From a virus (lineage: Duplodnaviria; Heunggongvirae; Uroviricota; Caudoviricetes), in IMG/VR virus record IMGVR_UViG_2799112330_000002, positions 128,001 to 192,000 of that record: 64,000 nucleotides of DNA; one strand, written 5' to 3'. The notes beneath the pieces were generated by a model. It saw only the letters and a list, made by a program, of their open reading frames with translations, did not search any database and was not told where the DNA came from. The position numbers and the translations under genes are program-made. Each line of letters starts with the position of its first letter. The first letter of the stretch is position 1. Below, one piece after another: positions 3,001 to 22,604 of this stretch.

Positions 3001-5231
3001 GTCTCAATACCGTTATCATAAAGAGCAGTTGCTATAATAATATCACTTCGTTCATTTCCTACTTGCGCATATGTCTGAATAACTGTATCTTCTTCCAATT
3101 CAATAGGTGTTGTATATTGAATATAACTTCCTAATTGGTTCAATCTATAGTATATAATGGCACCTTGAGTATCACATGTCAAAGTTACTATATTATTAGA
3201 ATTATTTATTTCAGGCTCATCAATACCATTGTCATATGTATAAGAACGTGTTATGATATCTGATTTCTCTGCTTCAAGTTGTGAATAAGCTTGAATAGTT
3301 GTATCTTCTGTAATTGATATTGGACCTGTGTATAAAATGTATTCTCCAGAATTATTTAATTTATAATATATTGATGCACCTTGAGTAGCACATGTTATGG
3401 TAATTGTCTGACCATCTGTACAGGTAATGACAGGATCCTCAATATTATGAAGTTTCTTGATATAGAATTCAGATACATCCATATTACAGAAACGATAAGG
3501 ATTACCATTTCCATCTAATGCACAACCTACAGTTACTTTAATATATTTAAGTTCATTAGTATCTGGGAATGTTCCAGTTTTTGCCGCATGATAACCACCA
3601 ATTAATTCATCACATACAAATTGATTTGAAGAAAGTGTTGGGTCATAAACAATTTTAATATTATATTCATGAACATCATTAGAACCATTTACCTTATTAT
3701 TAGCTGTAGCTGTTATTGTTGTATTGGTGTTGCTACCTGTGGCAAATTGTGTACCAAGTTGAATAGTTCTTGGGGCCGATTCCGCATATCTAATTTGAAA
3801 CCCATACCAAGGTGATGGATTTTGCCGTTTCATCGCCATCACATTATGGTGATTATCATTTTGATTTGGTGGTTGATTTGTGTAATCTATGGTAAAGTGT
3901 AATACCATTTCAAAACCATGTGTCAAATCAAATGCATAATAATCAGTATTAACACCGCTTGTACCATCCATATTCATTGAGCCTCCTTCACTTCCGGATG
4001 TATCAATATCATATCCAGTAACTACAGGATCACCATTGTCATTATACTCAACTGTTTGTGTAGATGTATTACCTGATGTATCTTGTGTCTGATTTACTTG
4101 ATCTGTTGGATCACCGTTTTCATTATAATTAGTTGTTGATGAACTTGATGAACCATCTGAATTAGTTGTTGTCTCATTAGTTGTTGAACCAGTTGTATTA
4201 CCGTTTTCATCATAATGAGTTGTCTCGGTTTGTGTCTGTGATGATCCATCTTGATTATCCACAGTTGTTGATGTTGTTTCAGAAGAAGTACCATCAGAAT
4301 TTGTAGTTGTAGTTGTTTCCTCAGTAGTAATAGCACCAGTTTCAGGATCAGGAGCAGAAGTGTTTGTTGTAGTCTCTGTAGTTGTACCTGTTGAATCTGT
4401 TGTCGTAGTTGTAGTAGATGATGAACCATCAGTATTCTCAGTAGTCTCTGTTGATGTTGTCTGAGAATAACCATTTTCATCAGTTGTAGTAGTGGTAGTA
4501 GTGGTTGTAGTTGCACCAGTCTCTTGGTCTGTAGTAGTTGTAGTAGTCTCTGTAGTAACAGTACCATTTTCGTCAACAGTTGTCTCTGTAGTTGTTCCTG
4601 CATCATACACCAAATTGATTTGTTTGGTCGCAGTATATGTATTATTATTACGAGTATATTCTGCTTCAACTTCTATAGTACCTGATGAAATAATAGTAAT
4701 ATTACCACGATTGTCAATTTGAGCAAAATTATTACCGTTTACAATTGTCCATTCTGGATTGACTATTGTTGAATTGAATCTACCGATGACATTTCCAGAT
4801 GTACCTGTAATAGTATCTGCACCTTCAATAGTCAATTGGTTGTCATAAGATATAGTAATAGTCTTTGTAGCTGTCTTTCCTCTATATACTGCTTGTACAA
4901 CTATAGGCTCATTTATGACACCAACATCAATAGTGACTTTACCGTTCTCATTGATTGTTGCATATTGACCACCTGAAATAATTGACCAAGTTGGAGCGAC
5001 TATTCTATTATTATATACATAAGTAAGATTGAATGTTTTACCAGTGAATGTATCAACACCAGAAATAACATAAGTGACTTCATCATCAATCTTGACTTCA
5101 CTATAGAAATAAATATTAGATGTCAATATACTTGACTGAACATCTGTTTGTAATACCCATTGCCCATCAACTTTTCTATAGACATCTAATACTTCAACCC
5201 ATTCACCATTTAGCTTTATATAATCCGCCAT
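1..5231 (-). CDS. Large multidomain virion/tail-associated protein with a C-terminal GH2 (beta-galactosidase/glucuronidase family) glycosidase; 3' end runs off the window
   Basis: Absent from the ORF track, consistent with no stop before the window edge. ATG at 5231 (MADYIKLNGEWVEVLDVYRKVDGQW). The same frame contains a Thr-rich linker, repeated 'ITCATQGASIYYKLN' Fn3-associated/chitobiase-C-type modules, and GH2 motifs PHLWNG, NGQPLLLRGCCMHDD, LRLAHYPH, WGLSNE (Glu codon 426-428) and SEYG (Glu codon 150-152). Confidence 0.85.
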   Translation of the reverse strand, partial: MADYIKLNGEWVEVLDVYRKVDGQWVLQTDVQSSILTSNIYFYSEVKIDDEVTYVISGVDTFTGKTFNLTYVYNNRIVAPTWSIISGGQYATINENGKVTIDVGVINEPIVVQAVYRGKTATKTITISYDNQLTIEGADTITGTSGNVIGRFNSTIVNPEWTIVNGNNFAQIDNRGNITIISSGTIEVEAEYTRNNNTYTATKQINLVYDAGTTTETTVDENGTVTTETTTTTTDQETGATTTTTTTTTTDENGYSQTTSTETTENTDGSSSTTTTTTDSTGTTTETTTNTSAPDPETGAITTEETTTTTNSDGTSSETTSTTVDNQDGSSQTQTETTHYDENGNTTGSTTNETTTNSDGSSSSSTTNYNENGDPTDQVNQTQDTSGNTSTQTVEYNDNGDPVVTGYDIDTSGSEGGSMNMDGTSGVNTDYYAFDLTHGFEMVLHFTIDYTNQPPNQNDNHHNVMAMKRQNPSPWYGFQIRYAESAPRTIQLGTQFATGSNTNTTITATANNKVNGSNDVHEYNIKIVYDPTLSSNQFVCDELIGGYHAAKTGTFPDTNELKYIKVTVGCALDGNGNPYRFCNMDVSEFYIKKLHNIEDPVITCTDGQTITITCATQGASIYYKLNNSGEYILYTGPISITEDTTIQAYSQLEAEKSDIITRSYTYDNGIDEPEINNSNNIVTLTCDTQGAIIYYRLNQLGSYIQYTTPIELEEDTVIQTYAQVGNERSDIIIATALYDNGIETPIISCNGEIVTIGCNQANAEIYYRLNQTGEFTHYDSAIEILADTVVEAYVMVNNVQGHTAIENCIYDPILLDPPIIIGNGPSVVINCPTANATIFYKLNNTGSFVQYSGPIPILDDTYVQAYSMLRGKQSSVVSETCIYSDVHDYSMDYLTFQILENGVIPWKQNTTSKTIEYSLNGGPWTSITSTSNGVMINVSQGDTIRFRGNNATYCNNNKSQYSGFGLGESGTNGDYVSNAASFNVEGNVMSLIYGDNFINQTSFPSGTYNLCSLFKKAKVVSAENLILPVTTLTEACYRAMFSWATNLTKAPALPATTLAKYCYWYMFESCAITEAPDLLAETLVNSCYGSMFTGCSSLNFIKCMAITGFNQTDCKKGWVTGVASSGTFVKDSGVSVSTWSRGANGIPINWLVYDDVPVAPPTITYDGFSTITLACETQGATIYYKLTGDTDFTAYSTPLTITGDTVVQAYSELNGVESRIVKQTCVYVSDVPIEASNRDLNKWQYGGQEVTAPFSANGVDGHSASYSKGTFTFETSFALRQAQPTYLWFQHADQSATIYIDDVQVTKHWGGYTAFTVDISNFVHAGQNNVKIQLKNNEGNNLAPANADFNFNATLGKVKLFTSPCLPGTQYGYDGFHVYSTVTAASATLNIKTTVPTGASVTCLISDGTYSWSDTIVSDGTEMTFTNTITNPHLWNGKADPHLYNITLEISKDNVLYHRFVRPYGLRFYDYVINDTTVLANEDPYTGFLLNGQPLLLRGCCMHDDIDGKANALDDTDYNNTFNTIQELNLNFLRLAHYPHPKEVYDRCDQLGIIVQTEGPCVNKMQSTMPADYFTHLETQYQDMIEQHMNHPCIIFWGLSNETTTDDKDFAKEKMNGYVTIIKNVLPTAWVGYVMAQSAVDPSAYYNNPNCDWFGCNIYVGWYASPNSNNPSSEINKRITNTITNKSKILCYSEYGCGGTQSCHSDDPLTTTTRGNHERHDIEYMMWLHEGQIAAIKNYPQLA
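4010..4600 (-). repeat. Thr-rich low-complexity repeats (TTTTDENG/TENTDGSSTTT-type) inside the GH2 protein
   Basis: Dense gtt/gta-rich tract translating to T/S/D-rich turns in the frame of the 1-5231 gene. Confidence 0.7.
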
Positions 5232-6494: not shown

Positions 6495-6761
6495 TTATAC
6501 TACTTTATAAGTGACATCAACTTGAATGATATCAATGTCCCCATAATGTCCTTTTGTTTCTCTATCTGCGGCGTTTTTCTCTACTTTGGCTTTATATAGT
6601 GTCTTACCTTTCCATGCATGACTTATATTTTTAGTAGTCTTCCACCATTCAGCATCAGAATATATATATTCGTCCTTGTGTTCACCATTTTTGATCCTAA
6701 GAACAAAATATCTTTCACTGCTTAATGATTCATTAACAAATCTTTCAGTAATGTCTTTCAT
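6495..6761 (-). CDS. Putative internal head protein
   Basis: MKDITERFVNE N-terminus. Confidence 0.55.
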   Translation of the reverse strand: MKDITERFVNESLSSERYFVLRIKNGEHKDEYIYSDAEWWKTTKNISHAWKGKTLYKAKVEKNAADRETKGHYGDIDIIQVDVTYKVV

Positions 6762-7057
6762 ACTTTATGTTGTTTTTGATATTTTTCAAATTCTTCATCA
6801 GTTTTATCGCTAAGATACTTTTCTTCAAATTCATGCATTTCAGAAGAAGTAAAAGGTTGATTAGATTTATATTTTTTATCGAACTCATCAGAAGACCCAA
6901 ACCATGCTGTAAGTATATATTCTAATCCATCATTTGAGTTTTTATCTCCACAAAATTGTGAAGCCGCAGCATAAAATTTTGGACATTCATTTTTTATTTG
7001 TTTAATATTAATATTATCTTTAATTGATTCATTAATATATTGATTAATTGATTTCAT
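6758..7057 (-). CDS. Putative internal head protein
   Basis: MKSINQYINE N-terminus. Confidence 0.6.
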   Translation of the reverse strand: MKSINQYINESIKDNINIKQIKNECPKFYAAASQFCGDKNSNDGLEYILTAWFGSSDEFDKKYKSNQPFTSSEMHEFEEKYLSDKTDEEFEKYQKQHKV

Positions 7058-7079
7058 AAGCTTTATATTTTATATGTTT

Positions 7080-8405
7080 TTACTCTGTTTGCATATATAA
7101 GTCTCCATTATTTCCATTAGCATTATTTGGTACACCTTGTCCTGAATATAAAACAGATGGAGAAACTAATTGCCATTGACCATTTACTACCATAAGTATC
7201 TTTCCATTATCAGAAGCAGAAACTTGTGGAAGTCCTGATACAACTATATTTCCAGTACCTACAAGTGATTCATTATTGATTGTCTTAAGTGATTGATGCT
7301 CTGTAAGGAATGTTGTACCTTTTGTCAATGTTATCTCATGATTATTTACTGTTATGTCTGTTACTGCATTTCCTGCACCTGTTGTAGTACCTTTTGATAG
7401 TGGAGTTTCGGTTTTCAAGAATGTATTATAGTTATAACTACTGTCTGCTATTGTTCCATCTGAATTAAAATAAGCAAAATTACCAGTTGTTGGATTTGAT
7501 ACTTTAGGAATCTTTGCACTTATTTGTGTTGTTAATGTGCCTGCCAAATCTGCATCATTATTTAATGCATATGCAATTTCTTGTAATGTATCTAATGCAT
7601 CAGGAGCTGTTCCTATCAAATCAGCAAACTTAGTATATACTGCACCACCAGAAACAGGATTAGTATCATTCTCAGTTACTGTTGTTGATGTTGTTGGAAC
7701 TGTTGGTATAGTTGGCTTGTTTAATATATAAGCATAACTAGTAGAATCAGAAATATTCCAGTCAGCCCTTATATTATTACGAGCATCAAGAGCCTGTTGG
7801 AGAGTTTCATTAGTTTGGTTTTTAAAAACAACTTTTATCCAATCCCAATTTGAAAACTGAGGAGCAATAGAATCCATTTTAATAAGTTCAGGCCCTATAA
7901 ATATATTCGTATCTATATCATTTGTAAATATTTTATTACCATAGATATATTCTTCTCCCATTGTATGAACCAAATTACTATCATTCGGAATTACTGGTTT
8001 ATTTAATATATAAGTATAACTTGTAGAATCGCTTTCATTCCAATCTGATTTTACTAACTCTGGTATAGTTGGTTTGTTTTGAATATATGCAGCACTTGAT
8101 GAATTAGTTTCATTCCAATTTGGATTAGTTTCAATTGTTAAGAAATTTGAAAGATCTGGTTTATTCAATATATATGTTTCTTTTGTAGAATCTGACTCAT
8201 CCCAATCTGATTGAACATTTTCATATGATGTGCCTTCAATACCACTAAGACGATCATTAAGATCATTTATTCTTTGAGATATTGCATTATTGTTTTGCGG
8301 TATAATCTCTAATATAGCTTGAACAGTTTGGTCAGAAATTATATATGATACACCATTTATATTGATTGCTGATAATTTATTTACTGGATATACTGGATCT
8401 GCCAT
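7080..8405 (-). CDS. Tail fibre-like structural protein
   Basis: Four SDWNESDSTSYxYILNKP repeats and the GTAPDALDTLQEIA motif typical of tail-fibre shafts. Confidence 0.7.
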   Translation of the reverse strand: MADPVYPVNKLSAININGVSYIISDQTVQAILEIIPQNNNAISQRINDLNDRLSGIEGTSYENVQSDWDESDSTKETYILNKPDLSNFLTIETNPNWNETNSSSAAYIQNKPTIPELVKSDWNESDSTSYTYILNKPVIPNDSNLVHTMGEEYIYGNKIFTNDIDTNIFIGPELIKMDSIAPQFSNWDWIKVVFKNQTNETLQQALDARNNIRADWNISDSTSYAYILNKPTIPTVPTTSTTVTENDTNPVSGGAVYTKFADLIGTAPDALDTLQEIAYALNNDADLAGTLTTQISAKIPKVSNPTTGNFAYFNSDGTIADSSYNYNTFLKTETPLSKGTTTGAGNAVTDITVNNHEITLTKGTTFLTEHQSLKTINNESLVGTGNIVVSGLPQVSASDNGKILMVVNGQWQLVSPSVLYSGQGVPNNANGNNGDLYMQTE

Positions 8406-8426
8406 TACTTATAAAACATATTTATT

Positions 8427-8443
8427 TATATAATTAAAAATAA
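8427..8443 (-). promoter_or_regulatory. Putative late promoter TTATTTTTAATTATATA
   Basis: Exact 17-mer, 22 nt upstream of the 8405 start; identical copies at 10196, 14186, 26594 and 54732. Confidence 0.7.
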
Positions 8444-8456
8444 TTTTTTTAGACGA

Positions 8457-8486
8457 AAAGAGAGCTATATTTCTATAACTCTCTTT
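8457..8486 (-). terminator. Intrinsic terminator hairpin
   Basis: AAAGAGAGCTATA-tttc-TATAACTCTCTTT, downstream of the 8522-9598 gene. Confidence 0.6.
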
Positions 8487-8521
8487 ATGTTTTTTCTTAA
8501 GTTGTATATTAACTATTTATA

Positions 8522-9598
8522 TTATGCATGTGCTGCACTTGTTACTCCATTTACTGCAAGAATAGTAGTTGTTGTGAAGTTCATTGTATAAGCATGAGTA
8601 TTATCATCAAATGATGTTCCAACATAATGCATCATTGTTTCATAAGAATAATATGCAAGTTCTAAGTTTCCAGATGTAGGAGCTACACCATTGATTGTCT
8701 TTACTGCTGCAGTAGCAAGTTCATTGATTTCAGATTTGTCTGCCTTTTGATTTAAATATGCATAAGCAACGCCTGAACTGATGACATTTGTTGAATTTTC
8801 TGTAGGAGCAGCATCAAATGTTAAAGCATCTTGTTTTGCATCAACATAAGTCTGTACATAAGATAATGTAGCATAGTCATCCAATGTTGTTTCTAATGAT
8901 GTAGAAGTTACATAACTTTGTTCACTTAATACAGCCTGTGTTACATAACCATCTAAACTAATTTGTGTAGTACCAATTAATTCCCAACTATAAGTATCAT
9001 TAGTAGTATCATGTATTAAAATGTATTCATCTTTAACATTTCGACCTGAACCTTCATTAGGAATTAAATAAATGATATACATATTATCAGCTCCTGGATT
9101 TGCTGGTAATGCACCGACTGTTTCATACTTAAATTGATCAATTCCATTTATTAAACCATTAATTTCATCCTTAGAATATGAATCATCGATTGTACGATAA
9201 TAAGATGCAACGTAAGAAAGTTCTGCGTAAGGAGTTAGATCTGTAGCTGCTGGTTTATCAATTAAATCGTTGAAACTACCAGTAAATGCAACAGCTGCTA
9301 AGTTTTCAGTATTTGCTTTAGCACTTAATCCAGTGTAAACAGCACCTGAACTAATAGCATTTGTTGAATTTTCTGTAGGAGCATTATCAAATGTCAAAGT
9401 GTCTTGCTTACCATTAATATATGATACTAATGTAGCTACTGTTCCATCAAATGTTGATGCTAAAGTATCAAGTGCAGGATCATGAATCTGATATAACTTG
9501 TTATCAATGTTTAACTTTTCAAGCAAATTAAGACTTGAATTGGTATGTAAAGCATCAATTTGACTTTGAGCTGTGTTTGTTATAACTAATTCTGCCAT
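8522..9598 (-). CDS. Tail fibre/structural protein
   Basis: Duplicated KQDxLTFDxAPTENSTNxISSG module, LAAVAFTGSFNDL and WELIGTT motifs typical of phage fibre proteins. Confidence 0.6.
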   Translation of the reverse strand: MAELVITNTAQSQIDALHTNSSLNLLEKLNIDNKLYQIHDPALDTLASTFDGTVATLVSYINGKQDTLTFDNAPTENSTNAISSGAVYTGLSAKANTENLAAVAFTGSFNDLIDKPAATDLTPYAELSYVASYYRTIDDSYSKDEINGLINGIDQFKYETVGALPANPGADNMYIIYLIPNEGSGRNVKDEYILIHDTTNDTYSWELIGTTQISLDGYVTQAVLSEQSYVTSTSLETTLDDYATLSYVQTYVDAKQDALTFDAAPTENSTNVISSGVAYAYLNQKADKSEINELATAAVKTINGVAPTSGNLELAYYSYETMMHYVGTSFDDNTHAYTMNFTTTTILAVNGVTSAAHA

Positions 9599-11329: not shown

Positions 11330-11908
11330 TTATACTTTATTTTGTGGTAATGGTTTTATGTTAGTAAATGGAAATATTTCCCAATTTGGATTCTTGCATT
11401 TCCATTTTGTTATGTCTCCAATTGTCTTTAGCCGTTCACAACCTTGAAACATACATTTTAGATCTATGTCTTCAGTTATATTCCAATTAGATATGTCCCC
11501 AATGTCTATAAGACTCCTACAGTTATTGAACATAAATGCCATGCTTTTCACATTAGATATATCCCAATTTTCTAATCCTATTACTTTTCGAAGATATTTG
11601 CAACCACCAAACATTGCAGATAGATTTGTAACATGAGATATATCCCAATCAGATACATCAACTTCAACAATGTTCCAAGATGAAAATGTATTTGAAAGAT
11701 TTTTAATATTTGATATATCCACATTATTCATATCAAGAATATTACTTTCTCCAATCTTATCACTTATTATATGTTGTAGTTCTGAAAAATTCTTTGGAAC
11801 AAGATTTGATTGAATATTGTCTCTTGATAACCTGAATTTCTCAGTTATATACCCATGCAAACATGGGATCCTTTCAGCTTCTGAAATATAGTGATTTAGG
11901 TTTTTCAT
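11330..11908 (-). CDS. DUF285/BspA-like repeat protein with capsid-targeting-like N-terminus
   Basis: WDISxVxxM/LxxMF repeats; N-terminus MKNLNHYISE...YITE. Confidence 0.75.
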   Translation of the reverse strand: MKNLNHYISEAERIPCLHGYITEKFRLSRDNIQSNLVPKNFSELQHIISDKIGESNILDMNNVDISNIKNLSNTFSSWNIVEVDVSDWDISHVTNLSAMFGGCKYLRKVIGLENWDISNVKSMAFMFNNCRSLIDIGDISNWNITEDIDLKCMFQGCERLKTIGDITKWKCKNPNWEIFPFTNIKPLPQNKV

Positions 11909-12508: not shown

Positions 12509-14152
12509 TTATTTTTGAATTCTAAGTTCAGAATATTCATCTTCAAGTAGATGCTTCTTAGCAGGATTTACAAGATATGCTAATTTGCTCATTAAGTCTC
12601 TATTCAACAATACCTTTTGTTTCTTCTTTCTATTGTCAACTAAAGCAAACTTAGCATTAAGGAGTTTTCTTGTTCCTATTTGGATGCATGGGATCTCTAC
12701 AACTGTTCTTTCTTCAGTCACTTGTCCAACAATAGCTTTAGATACATCTACTTTCTTGAAGTTATATTCTTTTCCTTCAATTGTTGCAATGACATCATCA
12801 CCTTGTATAGATATCTTCTCACAGCCAATTGTTGATGCCTTTGCTCCATTTCCAGTATCAAATTTTGCTTCAAATGTTATCTCTTCTTCATTTTCCATTG
12901 TGAATGTAATGTCTTCAAGATATCCAACTGATTTTGGTGACAATACTAATTCATTTATGTCATTTATATTGTCTAATAATATTTTGCAGAAATTTTCATC
13001 AATTACATCACTTATACCTTCCGTACCAGGAGAAGCATTGAATTCAAGAACAACGTTGTCACCAATTTCTGGATTTGATCCCTTGACAAGTGGCATGATG
13101 TCAACAGCACACCAAGGCATTCCAGATATCTTTGCTACTTTAAGAGCTATCTCTTCTTGTTCTTTAGTCAATTCAACCTTTTCAGCAACAGCACCTAAAG
13201 AGACATTTGAACGGAAGTCACCACCAATCTTCTTACGTTTCATCTGAGCAAGAATCTTCTGTTTTGTTCTCATTGTCAATACATGTACTCTTATGTCACC
13301 ACCATCTGCTTCTTCTTTCTTCTGTACTAATAGTTCTCTTTCTTCATCAATAGCAAATATAGCTTGAAGGATTGAAAGAATAGTCTTGCCGTTTACCATG
13401 AATACACCAGTACCACCATGACCATCCAGGATCTTTACAACATATTCATATTTTTCAGATTCATCAGAATTCTGATCTTTATATATGTCTTTCAATTTCT
13501 TCTTAAGACTATCCATTCCGTCCTTTATGTCATTCTTAGATACTAATGTGAACTTTGGTTGTGGTATCTCATATCTTTCCATTAATACTGCGGACTGGTA
13601 TTTGTTGCATGCCTTCTTCAATGACTGAGCAGGATTGATTACAAATATACCCCAGTTCTGGATTTCTTTTATACATTCCATACATTCTTCAGACTCTTGA
13701 GCTCCAAGACGAACAATAGCAATAGTATCAATATTTGACTGATGATCAATAGTATACTTAAGCTTATCATCCCATATATCTATCTTGTCATCAGTTGCTT
13801 TATAGTTAAGCTGTTCTGCTACAAATATTTCTAGTTTGATGTCTTTTCCCTTTATAGCATCTTCCAAGTTCTTTAATGTCTTGTTCTTAGATGCATCTCT
13901 TTCATTAGTGAAGAACAATATATTTTTAAAGAAATATTCTTTGTTAGCTCCTAATGGGTCCTTTTCTGATGGTTCTATATCTAACTCATTTGTAGCTGAT
14001 TTGTCTTCTTGTGATTCACCAGGTTCTTCAAGATCTACTGGATCAATAGCAGAATCATCTTTTGGCAATAAGTCATCATCTGCTTCTAAGACTCTATTTA
14101 TGTCATTCAAATTAGTCAGATAAGTATGTAAATGTTCTTTAAACTTTTTCAT
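12509..14152 (-). CDS. rimK: RimK-family ATP-grasp ligase fused to a RimK-associated retropepsin-like protease
   Basis: VVKILDGHGGTGVF, DIRVHV, DFRSNVSLGA and VLEFNASPG motifs; C-terminal AKFDTGNG...VLLNR. Confidence 0.85.
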   Translation of the reverse strand: MKKFKEHLHTYLTNLNDINRVLEADDDLLPKDDSAIDPVDLEEPGESQEDKSATNELDIEPSEKDPLGANKEYFFKNILFFTNERDASKNKTLKNLEDAIKGKDIKLEIFVAEQLNYKATDDKIDIWDDKLKYTIDHQSNIDTIAIVRLGAQESEECMECIKEIQNWGIFVINPAQSLKKACNKYQSAVLMERYEIPQPKFTLVSKNDIKDGMDSLKKKLKDIYKDQNSDESEKYEYVVKILDGHGGTGVFMVNGKTILSILQAIFAIDEERELLVQKKEEADGGDIRVHVLTMRTKQKILAQMKRKKIGGDFRSNVSLGAVAEKVELTKEQEEIALKVAKISGMPWCAVDIMPLVKGSNPEIGDNVVLEFNASPGTEGISDVIDENFCKILLDNINDINELVLSPKSVGYLEDITFTMENEEEITFEAKFDTGNGAKASTIGCEKISIQGDDVIATIEGKEYNFKKVDVSKAIVGQVTEERTVVEIPCIQIGTRKLLNAKFALVDNRKKKQKVLLNRDLMSKLAYLVNPAKKHLLEDEYSELRIQK

Positions 14153-14290: not shown

Positions 14291-14851
14291 ATGAAGTTAA
14301 TAATTATAGAGGGAACAGACAATGTTGGAAAAGATACACTTATTTCAAGAATTATGGAAAACTACGATGTAATGACACTCATTCATTGTGGTAAGCCAAA
14401 GTCAAAAGATCATCCAAATGAATCACAGGACAGTTTATTCAATTTCTATATAAAAAGTATAATAAACAAGAAATATAATAATTCAGATGTCATTATTATG
14501 AACAGATCTCATATAGGTGAAGCAGTCTATGGAGTATTATATAGGAATAGGGACATAAATGAAGTATTGAAGAAGATTCATGATTGGAATGTTGAGCTTA
14601 TGAAATGTCCAGACCTTGAAGTAAAGTATATACAATTATTAAGTACATCCGAAAGACTATTGAAGAACAATGAAGATGGACAGTCATTATCAAAGGGAAA
14701 TAGTTCTAATATAATAAAAGAAACAGCATTGTTTACAGAAGCATATGTAAAGTCATTTTTAGACAAGAAACTTATATATGTAGATGATAATGGAGAATTC
14801 AGGACAAAAGAAGATATATTTGATGAAGCATGGGATTTCATTAATAAATAA
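14291..14851 (+). CDS. Thymidylate kinase-like dNMP kinase
   Basis: IIIEGTDNVGKDT P-loop; NRSHIGEAVYG motif. Confidence 0.75.
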   Translation: MKLIIIEGTDNVGKDTLISRIMENYDVMTLIHCGKPKSKDHPNESQDSLFNFYIKSIINKKYNNSDVIIMNRSHIGEAVYGVLYRNRDINEVLKKIHDWNVELMKCPDLEVKYIQLLSTSERLLKNNEDGQSLSKGNSSNIIKETALFTEAYVKSFLDKKLIYVDDNGEFRTKEDIFDEAWDFINK

Positions 14852-14875
14852 AAAGATATTAGATAAGAAGATATT

Positions 14876-15580
14876 ATGATTAAGACAGAAGATATATTGA
14901 AACAGTTCAAAGAAAAGTATGATAATAAAGATTTTAGAATAATTGGCAATAATGTACAGCAAGCAAAGACAATTGAGTTACAGAATGTACAGTTTGAAGT
15001 AGATAAGCCATGGATAGTAAGAGAACCAAACTATGATTATTTCAATAGAGAGCTTGAATGGTATAAGTCAGAATCATTGAATGTGAATGATATCCCAGAA
15101 GGTGCTCCAACAATGTGGAAGTCTTGTGCAACACCAATAGGATATATTAATTCAAATTATGGGTGGATGATCTGGTCTAAAGACAACTATAATCAATTTG
15201 ATCATTGTCTACAAAAACTAATTGAGGATCCACATACAAGAGAGGCATGTATGATATATAATAGACCATCAATGCAGGAAGACTATAATAAATTTGGCAT
15301 GCATGATTTTTGTTGTACATATTCTGTTCAATGTTTCATAAATGAAGACAAAGAAGGAAAGAAGCATCTAAAATATATTGTATATATGAGAAGTAATGAT
15401 GCAGTATTTGGATTTGATAATGATGCATTATGGCATAAGTATGTTCAGCAAATGCTAAGGAATAGACTTAGTGAACATTTTAATGAAGAATTCATAGCAG
15501 ACAATATTATATGGAATGCAGGATCATTACATATTTATGAAAGACATTTCAAATATTTAGAGGATGGACAAAACGAGTGA
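14876..15580 (+). CDS. dCMP hydroxymethylase-like enzyme (thymidylate synthase superfamily, T4 gp42-like)
   Basis: ELEWYKS, INSNYGW, TREACMIYNRPSM, DFCCT (catalytic Cys), MRSNDAVFGFDND (Asp at the dCMP-specificity position), WNAGSLHIYERHF. Confidence 0.85.
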   Translation: MIKTEDILKQFKEKYDNKDFRIIGNNVQQAKTIELQNVQFEVDKPWIVREPNYDYFNRELEWYKSESLNVNDIPEGAPTMWKSCATPIGYINSNYGWMIWSKDNYNQFDHCLQKLIEDPHTREACMIYNRPSMQEDYNKFGMHDFCCTYSVQCFINEDKEGKKHLKYIVYMRSNDAVFGFDNDALWHKYVQQMLRNRLSEHFNEEFIADNIIWNAGSLHIYERHFKYLEDGQNE

Positions 15581-16154
15581 CATAAAGAGAAAGTTGTTAG
15601 ATGAGCTTAAAGCTAATAATGTAAAAGATTGCGGATATAATTGCCAAAGTGGAAGAAGATATGTAGAAGTAAAGAATGCATTGTTTGAAGTTAACAAAGA
15701 TCGTATTTTTGAAAACATTCCTAAATTGTCTTATATGGATGATTCTTGGTATGTAGCAAATTATGAGCCTTTGCTAGAAAGGAATGATCAATATAATAAA
15801 TGCATTAATAAGTTGATTGAGAATCCAGCATCACGTCAAGCAGTTCTCATATTAGTAGATCCTAAAGAATATGACAATGAAGACAAAACATTCATATGTA
15901 CAATGTATATGCATATCTTTCTCAATCATATAGAAGAAAATAAATATGAATTGGAATATATTGTGCATATGAGGTCAAATGATGCTATAGAATTCATAAC
16001 CGATCATCAATGGCACCAGAAAATTTATTTTCGAATTTTTAATGAATTAATTGAGAAAACGAACTATATTATAATAAAGAAACCTATTGTTTGGAATGCA
16101 GATACTATTCATCTATATGAGCAGTTTTGGGATCAAGCAATAGACAATTATTAA
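15564..16154 (+). CDS. Second, shortened dCMP hydroxymethylase-like paralogue
   Basis: SRQAVL, FICT, MRSNDAIEFITD and WNADTIHLYE motifs; lacks the INSNYGW segment. Confidence 0.75.
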   Translation: MDKTSDIKRKLLDELKANNVKDCGYNCQSGRRYVEVKNALFEVNKDRIFENIPKLSYMDDSWYVANYEPLLERNDQYNKCINKLIENPASRQAVLILVDPKEYDNEDKTFICTMYMHIFLNHIEENKYELEYIVHMRSNDAIEFITDHQWHQKIYFRIFNELIEKTNYIIIKKPIVWNADTIHLYEQFWDQAIDNY

Positions 16155-16173
16155 CTTATAATATATATAGAGT

Positions 16174-16857
16174 ATGAAACATAAGATATCCGCATCAATA
16201 ATGTGTGTAGACAACCTATTAGATCTACAGTCAGAAATAAAGACATTAGAAGACATAGGTATTGACTATTTGCATTTGGATGCGATGGATGGGCATTTTG
16301 TAAATAATATTACATTTGGCCCAGATATTTTCAATGCTGTTCAAAAATGTTCTTCAATTCCTTGTGACTATCATCTTATGCTTGATAATCCATTACCATT
16401 CATACAAAGACTTGATCTTAACAATAATGATATTGTGACTATTCATGCTGAGATTGATTCACAAAGATTTGAAGAAGCATTTGAATATTTGAAGACATTA
16501 AAGAAAAGAGGAGTAAAGATAGGAGTAGCAATCAATCCGGGTACATCAATAGAATCATTGGTGAAATACTTGGATGATATTGATGTGATATTAGTCATGC
16601 TTATCAATCCTGGTTTTGCTGGTCAACCTATTATTGATGGAATATTACAAAAGCCTGTATATATCAGGAAATATCTAGATTCACTTAATCATAAGAAGAT
16701 AATGATATCTGTTGATGGTGGTGTATCAGTGGAAAGAGCAAAATATCTTTCAAAGAATGGTATAGACATGTTTGTTGGTGGTACTTCTGGTCTGTTCATA
16801 AAGAATAGTGATTTGAAAAAGAATGCAGAAATATTGAGAAAGAACATAAACAATTAA
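16174..16857 (+). CDS. Ribulose-phosphate 3-epimerase family protein, D-allulose-6-phosphate 3-epimerase (AlsE)-like
   Basis: HLDAMDGHFV, DYHLM, NPGFAGQ and VDGG motifs; SIMCxD N-terminus and GGTSGLF C-terminal loop are AlsE-type. Confidence 0.85.
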   Translation: MKHKISASIMCVDNLLDLQSEIKTLEDIGIDYLHLDAMDGHFVNNITFGPDIFNAVQKCSSIPCDYHLMLDNPLPFIQRLDLNNNDIVTIHAEIDSQRFEEAFEYLKTLKKRGVKIGVAINPGTSIESLVKYLDDIDVILVMLINPGFAGQPIIDGILQKPVYIRKYLDSLNHKKIMISVDGGVSVERAKYLSKNGIDMFVGGTSGLFIKNSDLKKNAEILRKNINN

Positions 16858-16891
16858 GACATAAATAAAACATAATAATTAGATAATATAT

Positions 16892-18553
16892 ATGAAAGTT
16901 TTTATTACAACATCTGGAATTGGATCAAGACTATTAGAGCTTACAAAATATACTAATAAGTCAATGATCAAAATAGGCAAGAAACCTGTTATATCTTATA
17001 TTATTGATGAATATCCTGAAGATACAGAGTTTGTCATTTCTCTTGGATATTTTGGTGATCACATCAAACAATATCTTGAGTTAGCATATCCTGACAAGAA
17101 GATTACATTTGTAAATGTTGATAACTATGCTGGTCCAGGATCATCTCAAGTCTATTCACAATTACAAGCTGAACAATATCTTCAAGAGCCATTTATCTAT
17201 CATGATTGTGATACTATTGTTCAGAACCTTCAAGAGCAGATACCAATGGATTTCAAATATAATTTCTTAGTAGGTTATGAGACAAATTCAGAGTTATATG
17301 ATGCTTTTGATTATGATGTGAATACTAAGACAAATGACAAGTATGACTCATATAAGCTTATAAAGACATATATGAAGCCTGATTCATTAGTAGGTATGCT
17401 TTCATTCATTGGTATTTGTGGTATATATGACTATAAGACATTCTGGAAATATATGCATAAAGCTTATGAGAATGAGACAGTTCCCTATGACTTCTTGGTC
17501 TATCACAAATATGGAATGTTCAAAAACAGTCTTAGAGCAATAAAAGTTGATAACTGGACAGATACTGGAAATATTGCTGGTGTAAAGAATGCAAGAAAGA
17601 TGTTCAAGGATCAGTTCTCAATATTAGACAAGAATGATCAGGCTATCTTCATCATAAAAGACAAGGTAATCAAGTTCTTTGCTAAAGATGGAGTAGTAGA
17701 CAATCTCCTTGTTCATTATAATGCTATAAAAGAATTCTGTCAGCCAATAACTCAGAAGACAAAGAACTTTATGTGCTATGACTATATTGATGCAGAGAAT
17801 GCTATAGACAAAATGAATCCTGTAAGATTTGAGTCATTTATGAACACACTTAAGGATTCAGGTTTCTGGGACAACAAGGAATGGATTGACAAAGAATTGT
17901 TCTTTACATGTATGCATAATTTCTATCTTAACAAGAACATACAACGTGTCAATCAGTTCAAGGAATTCTATCAGGTTACAGAAGACAAAGACATCTATGT
18001 GAATGACATTCTTATTCCAAAAGAATGGACTATTGAAAGGATGCTTAATGAGATGACAAAACTTGATGAATGGAAGAATAGTGTACCTTCTGGATGGCAT
18101 GGTGATTTTGTATTAGACAATATATTATATGATAGTAAGAATGAAAAATATATATTGTTAGACTGGAGACCTAACTTTGGGGAAATCATAGAATACGGAG
18201 ATAAAAACTATGACTTTGGAAAGATGAATCATAACATCACATTCAATTTCAATAGTGCTTATAATGATTTGTTCTCCATTGATGAATCCGATCCAGATAA
18301 TATCTATATTAATATATTATGCAACAATTATGTCTATGAATGCAAAGAGGTATTAAGAAAATTTGTAGAAGAAAACTATAATGTAAGATTCCCTTATATT
18401 GAAATGATTACTGGAGCATGTTGGGTAAGTATGTCACCATTGTATTTCCTCAATCCAGTATCAAAGTTCTTGTTCTATATGGGTAAACTTACTCTTTATG
18501 TAAACTTAATGAAATTACTTGGAAATAAGATAACAACAAAATTTGACAAATAA
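16892..18553 (+). CDS. Sugar-phosphate nucleotidyltransferase fused to an APH/choline-kinase-like phosphotransferase
   Basis: N-terminal TSGIGSRL...TNKSM and WTDTG; C-terminal HGDFVLDNI, LLDWR and GDKNYDFGK. Confidence 0.8.
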   Translation: MKVFITTSGIGSRLLELTKYTNKSMIKIGKKPVISYIIDEYPEDTEFVISLGYFGDHIKQYLELAYPDKKITFVNVDNYAGPGSSQVYSQLQAEQYLQEPFIYHDCDTIVQNLQEQIPMDFKYNFLVGYETNSELYDAFDYDVNTKTNDKYDSYKLIKTYMKPDSLVGMLSFIGICGIYDYKTFWKYMHKAYENETVPYDFLVYHKYGMFKNSLRAIKVDNWTDTGNIAGVKNARKMFKDQFSILDKNDQAIFIIKDKVIKFFAKDGVVDNLLVHYNAIKEFCQPITQKTKNFMCYDYIDAENAIDKMNPVRFESFMNTLKDSGFWDNKEWIDKELFFTCMHNFYLNKNIQRVNQFKEFYQVTEDKDIYVNDILIPKEWTIERMLNEMTKLDEWKNSVPSGWHGDFVLDNILYDSKNEKYILLDWRPNFGEIIEYGDKNYDFGKMNHNITFNFNSAYNDLFSIDESDPDNIYINILCNNYVYECKEVLRKFVEENYNVRFPYIEMITGACWVSMSPLYFLNPVSKFLFYMGKLTLYVNLMKLLGNKITTKFDK

Positions 18554-18556
18554 GAT

Positions 18557-19471
18557 ATGAAGATAGCCGGAATTACAGTTGCTTACAATGAAGGTAATAT
18601 GGTGAAATATGTAATGCCATATTATGAGAAAATGGGTATTGATAAATTGATAGTCTATGACAATATGTCTACTGATGACATGTGTGAAAAACTTTCTAAA
18701 TATCCATTTGTGGAGATTCGTCATTTTGATACTAATGGGAAGTTTGATGACAGAAAGAATTCTGATCTCAAGGAAGAAGTGTCTTATGAATTACTTCAAG
18801 AAGGATATGATTGGGTATATACTGGAGACTTTGATGAAATAGTCTATTGTGAAGGTGATTTCAAGAAGGAACTTGAGAAAATTGAGGAATTAGGTGGAAC
18901 AGTACTTTGTAGAGACATGATCCAGCCATTCAATCCATTGCCTTATGACTTTGATGAGACAAAACTTATTCATGAACAATGTACTCATTTCCTTACATGG
19001 CATGACTGGTCAAGTACATGGGGTGGATCAAAGGTATTGTTGAGAAGTAAGAAAGTACCGAAGATAAAGTTGTCATTAGGTGCCCATGGAACAGGATTTC
19101 CAAAGAAGGGTATTGAGACAGATCCAGTATTGTTTGGCTATCCTTTCATCACATTCCATCTCAAATATGTTGACTTTACTGCATTAGAGCATAATTCTCA
19201 CGAAAAGCATGCAAGAATACAATGGAGATTAGATGTCCCAACATGTACAGCAGTAGATGCATCATTTACAAAACGTCTTTATTCTCGTACAATGGGTGAT
19301 GCTGGTATAAAGAATACTATAGATAAATTAATGAAGAAGACAAGTAAACTTAATATTGCTCCTGGTTGGGAATCATTCAAGGAATACTATGATAAAAACT
19401 ATAAGATGAATATGACTAAATTTAAAAATATTAAACACGTAAAAAGATTAGATTATGAACAGAACAGCTGA
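18557..19471 (+). CDS. GT-A fold glycosyltransferase (GT2-like)
   Basis: AYNE, VYDNMSTD and YDWVYTGDFDE (DxD) motifs. Confidence 0.8.
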   Translation: MKIAGITVAYNEGNMVKYVMPYYEKMGIDKLIVYDNMSTDDMCEKLSKYPFVEIRHFDTNGKFDDRKNSDLKEEVSYELLQEGYDWVYTGDFDEIVYCEGDFKKELEKIEELGGTVLCRDMIQPFNPLPYDFDETKLIHEQCTHFLTWHDWSSTWGGSKVLLRSKKVPKIKLSLGAHGTGFPKKGIETDPVLFGYPFITFHLKYVDFTALEHNSHEKHARIQWRLDVPTCTAVDASFTKRLYSRTMGDAGIKNTIDKLMKKTSKLNIAPGWESFKEYYDKNYKMNMTKFKNIKHVKRLDYEQNS

Positions 19472-20801
19472 AAAGAACATTTTGATCGGAAAAATTGGAA
19501 AATCAATTAAATTCAAGAACTTAGACATTAGAACGGGTGGTGATGCATGCATGATATTCTATTCATCAATTGCAAGAATGAATCCTGAATATAACTTCTA
19601 TTGGATTGGCCCAAACCAGATGAACAAGCTTAGTCAGGAGGAGTATGACTATATATTCCCTAACCATAACGTATTCTCTGCTTATGGATCAGATTATGAC
19701 AACCCTAATGCACATCCATTCCAGCCAATATTGGATTATTTCAAAAATAATGACATAAAGATTGACTTCGCTTTGCTTATGTCTGGAATGTGCTCAGGTC
19801 TCAATGTACCGAATTTCATGAAGAGTAAGAAGACTGGTGAATATGCTAAGATCTTGAATGCATTCAAAAACTATGTTGGTCCCTATATCTGGACACTTAA
19901 TGAAACAAATGTGCCTTTCTATCTTATTTCAGAGGATGCAAGATATATTACAACAAATGCTACTGATCTCTGTAACAGGGAAAGACTTATCTTTACACAA
20001 ACAAATGGTTATTTCAATCCTATTCCCCATATCACATCATTGACAGACTTCACATTGAAAGAAGATAGCTCAATCAAATGTATCTATGGATATGTTGAGA
20101 GAATATTTATGATGGGTCTTAGTCATGACTGGAAAGAGAAGATTGATATTGACAGGAAACTTCATTCTACTGGAAACAGACTTATTGTTATCTCAAATGG
20201 ATGTGGTCAGAAAGATATCAATAGAGCAAATGGCGGAAAGGGTTCAAGACTTCCTGAATACAAGAAATATATCATTGACAATCTTAAGAATACCGAATAT
20301 TCTGGTACAAAGATCTATGGACAGTGGGATGACAAGACATATGCTAAATATCCTGATACTGTCATTGACAAGCCACTTGTAGAACTTGAAGATGAAGTAG
20401 CAGATGCTCGTTATTCATTAGTATATTCTATCATGCCTGGGTTTGTTACTGTAAAAGCTTGGGAAATGATCATCAAGGGTCTTATCCCATTTATCCATCC
20501 CGATTATGACAAAGACAGACTTCTTGGACTTCCTGAATATTGTTATCTTAAGGATGAGAAAGACTTGTTGATAAAGATGAGAGAACTTGATGCTCATGAT
20601 GAATTATATCTACGCTTATTGAATAATTGCTTTAATTGCATATCAGAAGATGATCTCAATGGTAAGCGAATGAACAATTTCATATTCAACAAGATTGCAG
20701 AAGATCTGGGATTTGAGTATAAAGAGAAAGAAGGATGTGAATCTATTTTTGATCATTTCTCAAAGACTGTATTTGATCCTTCAAAAGTTATAAATAAATA
20801 G
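19455..20801 (+). CDS. GT-B glycosyltransferase, T4 DNA beta-glucosyltransferase-like
   Basis: DARY motif; C-terminal FVTVKAWEM...PFIHPDYD...YLKDEKDLLIKMRELD resembles the C-terminal half of T4 BGT. Context in a hydroxymethylase operon. Confidence 0.6.
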   Translation: MNRTAEKNILIGKIGKSIKFKNLDIRTGGDACMIFYSSIARMNPEYNFYWIGPNQMNKLSQEEYDYIFPNHNVFSAYGSDYDNPNAHPFQPILDYFKNNDIKIDFALLMSGMCSGLNVPNFMKSKKTGEYAKILNAFKNYVGPYIWTLNETNVPFYLISEDARYITTNATDLCNRERLIFTQTNGYFNPIPHITSLTDFTLKEDSSIKCIYGYVERIFMMGLSHDWKEKIDIDRKLHSTGNRLIVISNGCGQKDINRANGGKGSRLPEYKKYIIDNLKNTEYSGTKIYGQWDDKTYAKYPDTVIDKPLVELEDEVADARYSLVYSIMPGFVTVKAWEMIIKGLIPFIHPDYDKDRLLGLPEYCYLKDEKDLLIKMRELDAHDELYLRLLNNCFNCISEDDLNGKRMNNFIFNKIAEDLGFEYKEKEGCESIFDHFSKTVFDPSKVINK

Positions 20802-20810
20802 ACAATATAT

Positions 20811-21302
20811 ATGAACAAGATAATTGTAATTAGCGATATTGATGGTTGCTTGACAGATGGAGGACTTTATTATACTGCTGATGGCAAAGTAATGAAGAAG
20901 TTTGGAGTTGGTGATCATGAAGGAGTAAAGCTTTTACGAAAGAACAATATAGATATCCTGTTTATCACTGCCGATAAGACAGGATATCCTATTGTCAAAC
21001 GTAGAATAGATGATATGAAATGTGATCTTGTTGTTGTAAATGAAATAGAACGATTAGACTTCATTAAAGAATATGTGAAAGAATATGAACAAGTGGTATT
21101 CTTTGGAGATGGTCTTGGGGATGCTAATGTGAAGAGCAAAATCCCAGAAATATATTTCATAACTCCAAGAAACGCCAGAAATGAAGCTAAATATGTTTCT
21201 GACTATATCACCGAAAACAAAGGTAGTGAAGGAGCTTTCTTAGATCTTGCTATACATGTTTCTTGGAAAACAAATACATATTATAATAAACTATATGAAT
21301 AG
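20811..21302 (+). CDS. KdsC-like HAD sugar-phosphate phosphatase
   Basis: SDIDGCLTDG, KKFGVGD, FFGDGLGD and GSEGAF motifs. Confidence 0.85.
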   Translation: MNKIIVISDIDGCLTDGGLYYTADGKVMKKFGVGDHEGVKLLRKNNIDILFITADKTGYPIVKRRIDDMKCDLVVVNEIERLDFIKEYVKEYEQVVFFGDGLGDANVKSKIPEIYFITPRNARNEAKYVSDYITENKGSEGAFLDLAIHVSWKTNTYYNKLYE

Positions 21303-22587
21303 ACAAATAAGATGGGCAGCAATACAACCGCTTACTGGAGGTATGTATCTTGGGGCTGAAGAAGCTATAGGAAATAAAGCCGAATGGATCATGTCATTCA
21401 AAGGATTAGATACTGTCAAATATTCAAAGACTGATCCAACACAAATGACATCTGTTGGCAATGAATATAACCTATTGAAATATCTAGAAAAGAAAGGGAG
21501 ATCTGTACCCTATTATGTCATTAATAGTCCAATGTTTGATATTGACATAAACAGTACAAATGTTGACATTACTTTAGATGGTGACAAGGCAACTCCTGAT
21601 TATAATGATATTGACATAATTGTTGGTGTTCCTGTTTGTTCAGGTCTTTCAATGGTCACAAGTGGTAGTGAAGAGACAAAGAAGCAGAGAAACTGCAATA
21701 TGCAATGGATGGCTAATTATACATTACAAGTAATAAGGCCAAAGGTATATATATTTGAGAATGCTCCAACATTGATGACAGAACGTGGTGAGTATCTAAG
21801 AGAATGGTTTAATGAATTAGCATCTTTGAATGGTTATTCTATTCTCTATTATAAGACAGATACTATTCTTCATAACAATCCGCAAAAACGTCCTCGTACA
21901 TTTGTCATTTTTGTAAAGCATAACAAGTATGAGGCACAACAAGATCCACCATTGTTTGATTGGGAAAAGAAACCTATATCATTAGAAGATTTTTTGAACA
22001 ATATACCAGAAGGACTTGAGCAAGATGTTCCTGTATCAACAAGCCCAAATAACTTCTATTTGAAAGACTTTATGAATGAAGAATATAATAATGACTGGAA
22101 GAAACTTATCAATGGATCCGTCATGAACTTCATCATCAAAGAAAAGAAATTAGACAAGTTGATTAAGCATACTGAAAATAATGACAAATATGGAGATGAG
22201 AACAAGGAGAAGACATTGAAATATTTCAATCATATTAAGAAGAAGAAAGAAATGGGATTGAATTTCTATGGTAATGATCTTGTATATTTCAAAGACAAAC
22301 TTCCTTCTGTTCAATTTAGAGCAATCCCTAATATGGTACATATAACAAAGGACAGAATATATACTATAAGAGAATATCTTACATTTATGGGAATGCCTTA
22401 TGACTTTATCTTATATGGAGACAAGTCTAATCTTCCAAAGATCGCTCAGAATGTTCCAGTAGGTACAGCAAAATTCATAGTTGAACAAGCAGTAAAGATC
22501 ATTGAGAACTGGGGACAAGAAAGAACAACAAATCATAATGCGTTATATCAAAACAATATAGAACAAAAGACAAGAAACGGGGATTAA
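21295..22587 (+). CDS. DNA cytosine-5 methyltransferase-like protein with atypical motifs
   Basis: Likely start at ATG 21295. Motif IV VPVCSGLS, motif VI IFENAP, motif VIII PQKRPRTF, motif IX TIREYLTFMGMPYDF, motif X IAQNVP; motif I reads IQPLTGG. Confidence 0.75.
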   Translation: MNRQIRWAAIQPLTGGMYLGAEEAIGNKAEWIMSFKGLDTVKYSKTDPTQMTSVGNEYNLLKYLEKKGRSVPYYVINSPMFDIDINSTNVDITLDGDKATPDYNDIDIIVGVPVCSGLSMVTSGSEETKKQRNCNMQWMANYTLQVIRPKVYIFENAPTLMTERGEYLREWFNELASLNGYSILYYKTDTILHNNPQKRPRTFVIFVKHNKYEAQQDPPLFDWEKKPISLEDFLNNIPEGLEQDVPVSTSPNNFYLKDFMNEEYNNDWKKLINGSVMNFIIKEKKLDKLIKHTENNDKYGDENKEKTLKYFNHIKKKKEMGLNFYGNDLVYFKDKLPSVQFRAIPNMVHITKDRIYTIREYLTFMGMPYDFILYGDKSNLPKIAQNVPVGTAKFIVEQAVKIIENWGQERTTNHNALYQNNIEQKTRNGD

Positions 22588-22604
22588 TTTCCCTGTTTTT
22601 TTTT
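22575..22604 (+). terminator. Intrinsic terminator ending the modification operon
   Basis: AAACGGGGA-ttaatt-TCCCTGTTT followed by a long T run. Confidence 0.7.

Follow-up and report, generated by a model that had tools for sequence, protein, structure and literature searches.

Why would a giant, uncultured tailed phage encode a sugar-phosphate epimerase of the ribulose-phosphate 3-epimerase (Rpe) family amid genes for nucleotide and nucleotide-sugar metabolism, and which sugar might such an enzyme supply? The question is raised by a stretch of 64,000 nucleotides (hereafter the window; positions 128,001 to 192,000 of the IMG/VR virus record IMGVR_UViG_2799112330_000002, Caudoviricetes), in which an open reading frame (ORF) of 227 codons runs from ATG to stop at positions 16174–16857 of the + strand, as gene four of nine packed or overlapping + strand genes (14291–22587). 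Judged from its sequence, this gene is best explained as coding for a metal-dependent ketose-phosphate 3-epimerase that is active and belongs to the AlsE-like branch of the Rpe family, AlsE being the D-allulose-6-phosphate 3-epimerase of Escherichia coli K-12 (gene b4085; PDB entries 3ct7 and 3ctl). Its most likely role, which we hold with somewhat better than even confidence, would be to convert fructose-6-phosphate to allulose-6-phosphate and so to feed a phage-made nucleoside diphosphate (NDP)-hexose. The source databases name all relatives of the protein generically as 'ribulose-phosphate 3-epimerase'.

Membership of the family is clear, as evidenced by a match to Pfam PF00834 of 169.4 bits (gathering cut-off 21.1) that aligns residues 4–204 with profile positions 1–195 of 198. 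Residues H34, D36, M38, H67, M142 and D181 are invariant in the alignment with AlsE and Rpe; metal-ligand and acid-base roles (H34, D36, H67 and D181) and that of a methionine cushion are given for these positions in the literature cited in PMC12216980. AlphaFold2 models the protein with confidence as a (beta/alpha)8 barrel (mean predicted local distance difference test score, pLDDT, 92), and the G+C content of the gene is low, like that of its surroundings. Three motifs had been claimed for the protein in a sequence-only reading of the window, and all of them lie within the intact ORF: SIMCVD on barrel strand 1 (residues 8–13; 16195–16212), PGFAGQP in the loop behind strand 7 (residues 146–152; 16609–16629) and FVGGTSGLF in the loop behind strand 8 (residues 200–208; 16771–16797), all on the + strand. 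It was also observed that residues 42–46 read HFVNN in the phage clade and HFVPN in nearly all of the remaining family, including both AlsE and Rpe, a clade-specific change beside the active site.

The E. coli reference sequences, taken from NC_000913.3, read SPSLMCMD, PGFAGQ and FIVGTSGLF in AlsE, and APSILSAD, PGFGGQ and FVAG-SAIF in Rpe. Two statements made in the sequence-only reading could thus be read off directly, namely that AlsE combines SLMCMD with the longer GTSGLF loop and that the canonical Rpe loop is shorter, AG-SAIF being one residue short of GTSGLF. The phage epimerase has neither the PSIL(S/A).D nor the PGFGGQ nor the short AG-S..F loop of canonical Rpe; by alignment, it differs from housekeeping Rpe at exactly those strand-1 and phosphate-loop positions where AlsE does. 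Among 337 aligned family members, 'MC' on strand 1 occurs together with an 11-residue strand-8 loop in 173, and its absence with a 10-residue loop in 149, leaving 15 that are mixed or odd. The signature is therefore more than a chance resemblance. When loci were retrieved from bacterial genomes (isolates and metagenome-assembled genomes of many phyla), 79 of the 80 were of the short-loop, non-'MC' type, mostly reading (A/S)PSIL(S/A), and the genome bin in which the phage contig had been placed likewise has an Rpe of its own of the short-loop, non-'MC' type. The single exception was L018, which is described below.

In a FastTree phylogeny of the 337 sequences, all 173 signature carriers fell into one clade with AlsE and the phage epimerase (0.956). 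Since the motifs themselves could drive such a clade, their columns (query residues 6–13, 146–151 and 199–209) were stripped for the further trees. A quick IQ-TREE run on the stripped alignment split the signature carriers; a constrained tree uniting the long-loop sequences was better than this quick free tree by 70.8 log-likelihood (lnL) units, with a P value of the approximately unbiased test (p-AU) of 0.97, hence the quick search was judged to have failed and was not used. The careful tree without the motif columns recovered a clade of 52 tips, all of them signature or long-loop sequences and including AlsE and the phage epimerase (88/23), within which 36 tips formed a phage-bearing clade (99/95). 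Forcing the phage clade to group with all short-loop Rpe cost 97.8 lnL units and was rejected (p-AU 0.021). A further all-signature clade of 126 tips (0.925) holds the phage epimerase together with P0142, a fusion to a homolog of the E. coli allose kinase AlsK. The sequence trees therefore place the phage epimerase solidly outside canonical Rpe.

Functional anchors for the signature were found among relatives whose partners or operons disclose their business. Among the four epimerases fused to a ROK-family kinase, 'MC' is present in every one and the long form in all three whose sequence extends over the strand-8 loop; two of the fused kinases match AlsK over their full length, at 35% and 30% identity. 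Epimerases fused to ThiN or RuvX, which are housekeeping partners, carry the canonical signature. In Listeria monocytogenes, the lmo0734–0739 operon of lineage II is required for growth on D-allose, lmo0735 providing the alsE function (PMC5893763). A Listeria operon that matches lmo0734–0739 in gene order and sizes encodes an epimerase with the signature (SMMC, PGFAGQ and LGTSALF), adjoined by an RpiB that is 67% identical to E. coli RpiB; in one tree, this allose-operon epimerase was sister to the phage-bearing clade (46/91). The AlsK-like fusions and the Listeria allose operon thus tie the signature, independently and on sequence grounds, to hexose (allose/allulose) metabolism. As a rule for the Rpe family, 'MC' with the long loop is met in AlsK fusions and in allose operons, and the canonical signature in enzymes with housekeeping partners; present annotation overlooks this split and labels all members Rpe.

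It is worth noting that the Listeria sequences were filed under 'Listeria phage LM 4-11-1' (L212–L219; OR8467xx, OR8471xx and OR8473xx; UNVERIFIED_ORG). These records are contigs of the Listeria chromosome, not phage DNA, and they carry sugar operons, a housekeeping rpe and the lmo0734–0739-like als operon. More generally, most matches to the epimerase protein in phage records proved to be host sequence deposited as phage; a megablast of the operon against phage records gave no match, and PHROGs contains no Rpe-family phage group. Pattern scans of genome and metagenome contigs returned, among the matches listed, mostly canonical Rpe at no more than 44% identity. The nearest cellular homolog among the matches listed is L018, from a metagenome-assembled genome of the Clostridia (44% identical), where it is a second copy alongside canonical Rpe, with a PfkB sugar kinase on one side and glycoside hydrolases on the other; a search of 81 genomes of its order yielded a close homolog in only 2. 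For P0101, a relative labelled Prevotellaceae, no close homolog was found in 201 Bacteroidia genomes, and a search of the phylum of the genome bin gave distant homologs only. The relatives of that bin have genomes of 0.6–3.4 Mb, many reading through TGA in a Mollicutes-like manner, and bin contamination is 7%, but an OmpA-family protein is encoded by the phage; the phage contig is probably mis-binned, and the bin is accordingly no evidence on the host.

What the epimerase would feed can be read from the genes around it. The closest described precedents are the clusters of phages RB69, DLP3 and HY126, which comprise a nucleotide kinase, a thymidylate-synthase homolog, an arabinose-5-phosphate isomerase, AfhE, AfhF and GT-B transferases, AfhE being a nucleotidyltransferase joined to a kinase and AfhF a HAD phosphatase that strips the terminal phosphate of a bisphosphate (PMC13326640). 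The operon in the window opens with a nucleotide kinase of the thymidylate type (14291–14851, +; phrog_761 thymidylate kinase, E 1.3e-13, with weak Pfam and NCBIfam dTMP kinase matches), followed by a thymidylate-synthase-fold enzyme (14876–15580, +; PF00303) and an overlapping paralog of it (15564–16154, +). In a pairwise alignment, the first of these two enzymes reads MRSND, with Asp kept at the position of ThyA residue 169, where RB69p048 reads MRSQN; we infer from its sequence that it is of the hydroxymethylase type. An Asn at this position (D169N) marks 5-hydroxy-deoxycytidine monophosphate (5-hydroxy-dCMP) synthases (PMC13326640). The retained Asp169 means that the marker is missing, and the modified base is thus probably not 5-hydroxycytosine.

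Immediately downstream of the epimerase lies a gene for a fusion protein of 553 residues with an AfhE-like architecture (16892–18553, +), in which an N-terminal sugar-1-phosphate nucleotidyltransferase is joined to a C-terminal APH/choline-kinase-like kinase. NCBIfam matches cover residues 1–130 of the N-terminal part, the best PDB sequence matches being LicC (1jyk) and 1tzf, and no pairwise similarity of this domain to RB69p053 was detected; the C-terminal domain is 27% identical to RB69p052 over 147 residues (E 1e-6), including the HGD..N motif. Two glycosyltransferases follow, a family 2-like GT-A enzyme (18557–19471, +; PF13704, 48.7 bits; phrog_13126) and a 448-residue GT-B enzyme that is part of the operon's conserved core (19455–20801, +). 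The AlphaFold2 model of the latter (pLDDT 90.9) adopts the GT-B fold, and its top Foldseek matches were T4 BGT (1qkj, 1c3j and 1bgt) and BshA (3mbo). A KdsC/YrbI-family HAD phosphatase comes next (20811–21302, +), with NCBIfam scores of 82 bits for KDN-9-phosphate phosphatase and 75.5 bits for the KdsC subfamily, both under cut-off, and PDB matches to 2p9j, 3e81 and 1j8d; known KdsC-family members take the terminal phosphate off 2-keto sugar acids. The last gene is C5-cytosine DNA methyltransferase-like (21247–22587, +; PF00145, 75.6 bits), and a terminator-like hairpin with a T run behind it (22579–22593, +) ends the operon.

Two IMG/VR relatives, L001 and L002, share the core of this operon, that is, the kinase, a thymidylate-synthase homolog, the epimerase, the fusion, the GT-B transferase, the phosphatase and the methyltransferase-like gene, the paralogous synthase and the GT-A enzyme being missing from L002. 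In the window, in both relatives and in an unrelated virus, L227, an Rpe-family gene stands directly 5' of the nucleotidyltransferase-kinase gene. The epimerase holds the place at which the sugar is chosen in an Afh-like NDP-sugar module with a T4-BGT-like GT-B transferase at its end.

How that position is filled elsewhere was surveyed in 76 IMG/VR loci with homologs of the fusion, neighbours being counted within 7 kb. A cupin mannose-6-phosphate isomerase (cupin-PMI) was near the fusion in 70 of the 76, and it lies directly upstream of the fusion in Marine virus AG-345-E15 (L005, MH319741), the locus that was read in detail. Small HAD phosphatases were of the L005 type at 42 loci and of the RB69 gp51 type at 24. 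An Rpe-family gene was near the fusion at three loci, and the KdsC-type phosphatase occurred at the identical three; no match to the RB69 arabinose-5-phosphate isomerase was found in the 76. Since a change of entry enzyme comes with a change of phosphatase type across these loci, it appears that the entry enzyme sets the sugar and that the phosphatase type varies with it, a co-variation that offers a lead for interpreting other orphan sugar modules. The cupin-PMI module looks like a mutase-free route to an NDP-mannose-type sugar. No homolog of the thymidylate-synthase-fold genes of the window or of RB69 was found in the cupin-PMI loci at the thresholds used, and many of them may therefore serve glycans rather than DNA. 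The module of cupin-PMI, small HAD and fusion (L223–L296 and L005) often comes with an SDR dehydratase or epimerase and is widespread in environmental viruses.

In the pathway that we favour, the phage epimerase would be the entry enzyme of a phage-encoded, phosphomutase-free nucleotide-sugar route. Rpe-family enzymes invert C3 of 2-ketose phosphates, and here host fructose-6-phosphate would give D-allulose (psicose)-6-phosphate. In the fusion, the kinase half would phosphorylate the anomeric position, the KdsC-type phosphatase would strip the 6-phosphate, and the nucleotidyltransferase half would yield the NDP-sugar, which the T4-BGT-like GT-B transferase, aided by the GT-A enzyme, could load onto a hydroxylated cytosine of the phage DNA; there, the sugar would shield the DNA from host nucleases. 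What we infer here is which substrate is used, in what order the steps run and which base is modified. It is relevant that ring closure, and with it an anomeric hydroxyl for a kinase to act on, is open to a hexulose-6-phosphate but not to a pentulose-5-phosphate. The ketose might be used directly as a furanose, as with the C2 activation in angustmycin biosynthesis, or a host RpiB-type isomerase might first convert it to allose-6-phosphate. The sequence-only reading had seen no aldose-ketose isomerase in the operon, and indeed SIS, RpiB, PMI-cupin, Cupin_2 and xylose-isomerase-like TIM domains were found neither there nor anywhere on the phage contig nor in the flanks of L001 and L002. This five-family domain search gave no support to the suggestion that an isomerase lies elsewhere in the phage.

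Taken together, the evidence suggests that the DNA sugar is probably a rare hexose (allulose, allose or altrose). A more specific version, in which the furanose form of allulose-6-phosphate is phosphorylated at C2 by the AfhE-like kinase, loses its 6-phosphate to the KdsC-type (2-ketose-specific) phosphatase and passes through NDP-psicofuranose to psicofuranosyl-hydroxymethylcytosine, we regard as doubtful. If true, this modification would be without precedent as a ketose glycoside on DNA, and its donor would be a nucleotide-ketohexose of an undescribed kind.

Several observations weigh against the allulose-6-phosphate assignment or loosen its tie to AlsE. The phage epimerase failed the AlsE equivalog model NF007266 (181.2 bits, or 182 in the genome search, versus a cut-off of 271) as well as the Rpe equivalog TIGR01163 (183.8 bits versus 212.6), and the sole curated model that it passed was the Rpe subfamily NF004076 (191.6 bits versus 165); standard annotation would thus name it Rpe. 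It is 35% identical to AlsE and 32% to E. coli Rpe, and its best PDB sequence match is AlsE (130 bits) with Rpe nearly tied. A comparison of the whole modelled fold with the PDB, in which Rpe and AlsE scored alike, did not discriminate and was set aside. The marker changes of the AlsE clade are G52S, V134Y, L142T and N147D (PMC12216980), and the phage epimerase, with columns mapped by hand, has G, Y, L and N, that is, one of the four. Given the curated models, the near ties in the PDB and this marker count, the phage epimerase falls outside the narrow group of AlsE orthologs as defined by sequence. The trees bear on the same point. A comparison with the Rpe and AlsE clades had been proposed as a check, and the grouping with short-loop Rpe was rejected, but with the motif columns removed the trees lend weak support to a sister relation with E. 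coli AlsE (88/23). The deep order of the signature groups shifts when the Listeria sequences are added or in a FastTree of 354 sequences, and without the motif columns AlsE branches apart in one tree and signature groups are separated by some of the short-loop Rpe.

Other points on the same side concern function. Two further Listeria signature carriers adjoin RpiB homologs in operons that look like pentitol operons, and for this reason 'MC' with the long loop may not be exclusive to hexulose enzymes; an ORF beside one of them may, judging by gene order alone, encode a transaldolase. In the unrelated virus L227 (IMGVR_UViG_3300047586_000019, 6496–8904), the protein directly before the fusion and a KdsC-like phosphatase is a shortened, non-'MC' Rpe-like protein of about 150 residues, which keeps the metal ligands and from which two barrel strands are seemingly missing. 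We know of no precedent in the kinase family of the fusion for phosphorylation of a ketose-6-phosphate at the anomeric C2, nor of one for NDP-allulose. The earlier proposal of a fructose-6-phosphate to allulose-6-phosphate conversion is therefore upheld in part: placement outside Rpe, a signature tied to hexose metabolism and the sugar-choosing position speak for it, and the failed AlsE equivalog, the one marker in four and the Listeria carriers of pentitol type speak against it.

It follows that other substrates have to be weighed, of which the ordinary one is the least improbable, although we still consider it unlikely. The enzyme would then be a functional ribulose-5-phosphate/xylulose-5-phosphate epimerase feeding a pentose route, for example through a host KdsD-type isomerase to arabinose-5-phosphate, and on to NDP-arabinose via the fusion and the phosphatase as in RB69. 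AlsE itself is reportedly partly active on ribulose-5-phosphate. The pass under the NCBIfam Rpe subfamily model and the signature carriers in Listeria pentitol-type operons agree with this route, and an OmpA-family protein encoded by the phage (23708–24760) suggests a Gram-negative host, which would have KdsD. Moreover, the only characterised pathway with such a fusion yields UDP-arabinofuranose from ribulose-5-phosphate (PMC13326640). The canonical Rpe signature, however, is missing at all three substrate- and phosphate-binding motifs, and the grouping with short-loop Rpe was rejected. Arabinose-making phages bring their own isomerase, and the five-family search turned up none on this contig or in L001 and L002; hosts already have an Rpe, so that a second copy gains little; and the phosphatase is of another HAD type than those that accompany the aldose routes.

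Epimerisation of some other ketose phosphate, such as sedoheptulose-7-phosphate or tagatose-6-phosphate, to feed a heptose or another hexose seems to us quite improbable. Such a route could be compared to that of GmhA, HldE and GmhB, since ADP-heptose synthesis follows the logic of a kinase, a bisphosphate, a HAD phosphatase and a nucleotidyltransferase, and known KdsC-family phosphatases work on sugars of eight and nine carbons. Changes specific to the phage clade, such as HFVNN for HFVPN, would also suit an altered substrate, but to our knowledge no Rpe-family member acts on heptuloses. GmhB-like matches have been noted for AfhF (PMC13326640); even so, no GmhA-type SIS isomerase was found on the phage contig, and every functional anchor that we found points to allose or allulose. 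The least probable of the alternatives, and in our view very unlikely, is an auxiliary pentose phosphate pathway gene that would boost the supply of ribose-5-phosphate and nucleotides outside any sugar-donor route. Cyanophages are known to carry pentose-phosphate genes, and the epimerase does come after three nucleotide-metabolism genes in its operon. Yet an auxiliary gene of this kind would hardly be expected to have a non-canonical signature and nearest relatives that are accessory and catabolic, to stand always directly 5' of the nucleotidyltransferase-kinase gene in the four viruses named above, or to share its loci with a KdsC-type phosphatase; nor is there an Rpe-family phage group in PHROGs. 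The conversion of fructose-6-phosphate to allulose-6-phosphate thus remains the role that we favour.

Some further features of the locus and of similar loci were recorded. Homologs of the GT-B protein are numerous, with 343 cluster representatives at E <= 1e-5, some of which match PF13524; the 120 of them that were listed are all at least 49% identical and lie on contigs of up to 404 kb. These clusters far outnumber the approximately 35 of the epimerase clade, so other phages probably use this transferase family with other sugars. Divergently upstream of the operon lies a gene for a RimK-like ATP-grasp ligase of 547 residues with a long acidic N-terminal region (12509–14152, −), which is kept beside the operon in L001 and L002, and the operon is flanked by DUF285 (BspA-like repeat) proteins at 11330–11908 (−) in the window, 15602–16306 in L001 and 3148–4824 in L002. 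Three giant ORFs were observed in the window, all on the − strand: one of at least 1743 residues with a GH2 glycosidase barrel and chitobiase-like domains (3–5231), one of 2865 residues with a C-terminal Peptidase_S74 (46107–54704), which is an intramolecular chaperone typical for tail fibres, and one of 2353 residues with no Pfam match (56736–63797). Among cultured phages, Enterococcus phage 9183 (L006, MT939241, 28004–32956) encodes in series a thymidylate kinase, a thymidylate synthase, a dUTPase, a HAD hydrolase, a nucleotidyltransferase-kinase-like protein of 544 residues and a hypothetical protein of 406; this row is without an entry enzyme and makes the phage a candidate for sugar-modified DNA in an isolate.

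Compared with known systems, the phage epimerase resembles E. coli AlsE in fold, family, metal and acid-base residues, the S.MC motif, PGFAGQ and the longer GTSGLF loop. AlsE is catabolic and belongs to an allose-uptake operon with AlsK and RpiB, whereas the phage enzyme lies in an anabolic DNA-modification operon that has neither a free-sugar kinase nor an isomerase. Likewise, lmo0735 of Listeria is catabolic and linked to the phosphotransferase system, and its role is known from genetics rather than biochemistry. An anabolic use of such an enzyme is known from the angustmycin (psicofuranine) pathway of Streptomyces, where the AlsE homolog AgmD makes allulose-6-phosphate from fructose-6-phosphate and acts together with AgmC and AgmB; the product is activated at its anomeric C2, and a phosphatase removes the 6-phosphate later (PMC8599513). 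Compared by description only, the two routes share the anabolic production of allulose-6-phosphate followed by C2 activation and late dephosphorylation. They differ in that the AgmD route employs a pyrophosphokinase resembling phosphoribosyl pyrophosphate synthetase and a transfer to adenine, whereas the phage would use an NDP-sugar and a transfer to DNA.

Among viral systems, the commonest form, the cupin-PMI module, has a homologous fusion (30–40% identity) and, nearby, a phosphatase and a single entry enzyme, but its entry enzyme gives an aldose-6-phosphate (mannose-6-phosphate) and its phosphatases are small PNKP-like or gp51-like HADs. The clusters of RB69, DLP3 and HY126, which make arabinosyl-5-hydroxycytosine, are alike in that a nucleotide kinase, a thymidylate-synthase homolog, a nucleotidyltransferase with an APH-like kinase, a HAD enzyme and a GT-B transferase are clustered, with Tmk at the matching place in RB69. 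In contrast, their entry enzyme is a SIS arabinose-5-phosphate isomerase and that of the window an Rpe-family epimerase; the phosphatase of the window is KdsC-type, and RB69 gp51 is of another HAD type; and the window keeps Asp169 and adds the C5-methyltransferase-like gene and the GT-A enzyme. The phage-DNA sugars that we know of are glucose, arabinose, and galactose with glucose (Rhizobium phage RL38JI). Each further DNA sugar alters which restriction and defence systems a phage evades and supplies new enzymes for DNA labelling. A phage-made NDP-sugar for DNA glycosylation is already known; what is new is an entry enzyme of the AlsE type, a phosphatase of the KdsC type and the prediction, from the swapped entry enzyme, of a rare hexose on the DNA of a giant gut/rumen phage group.

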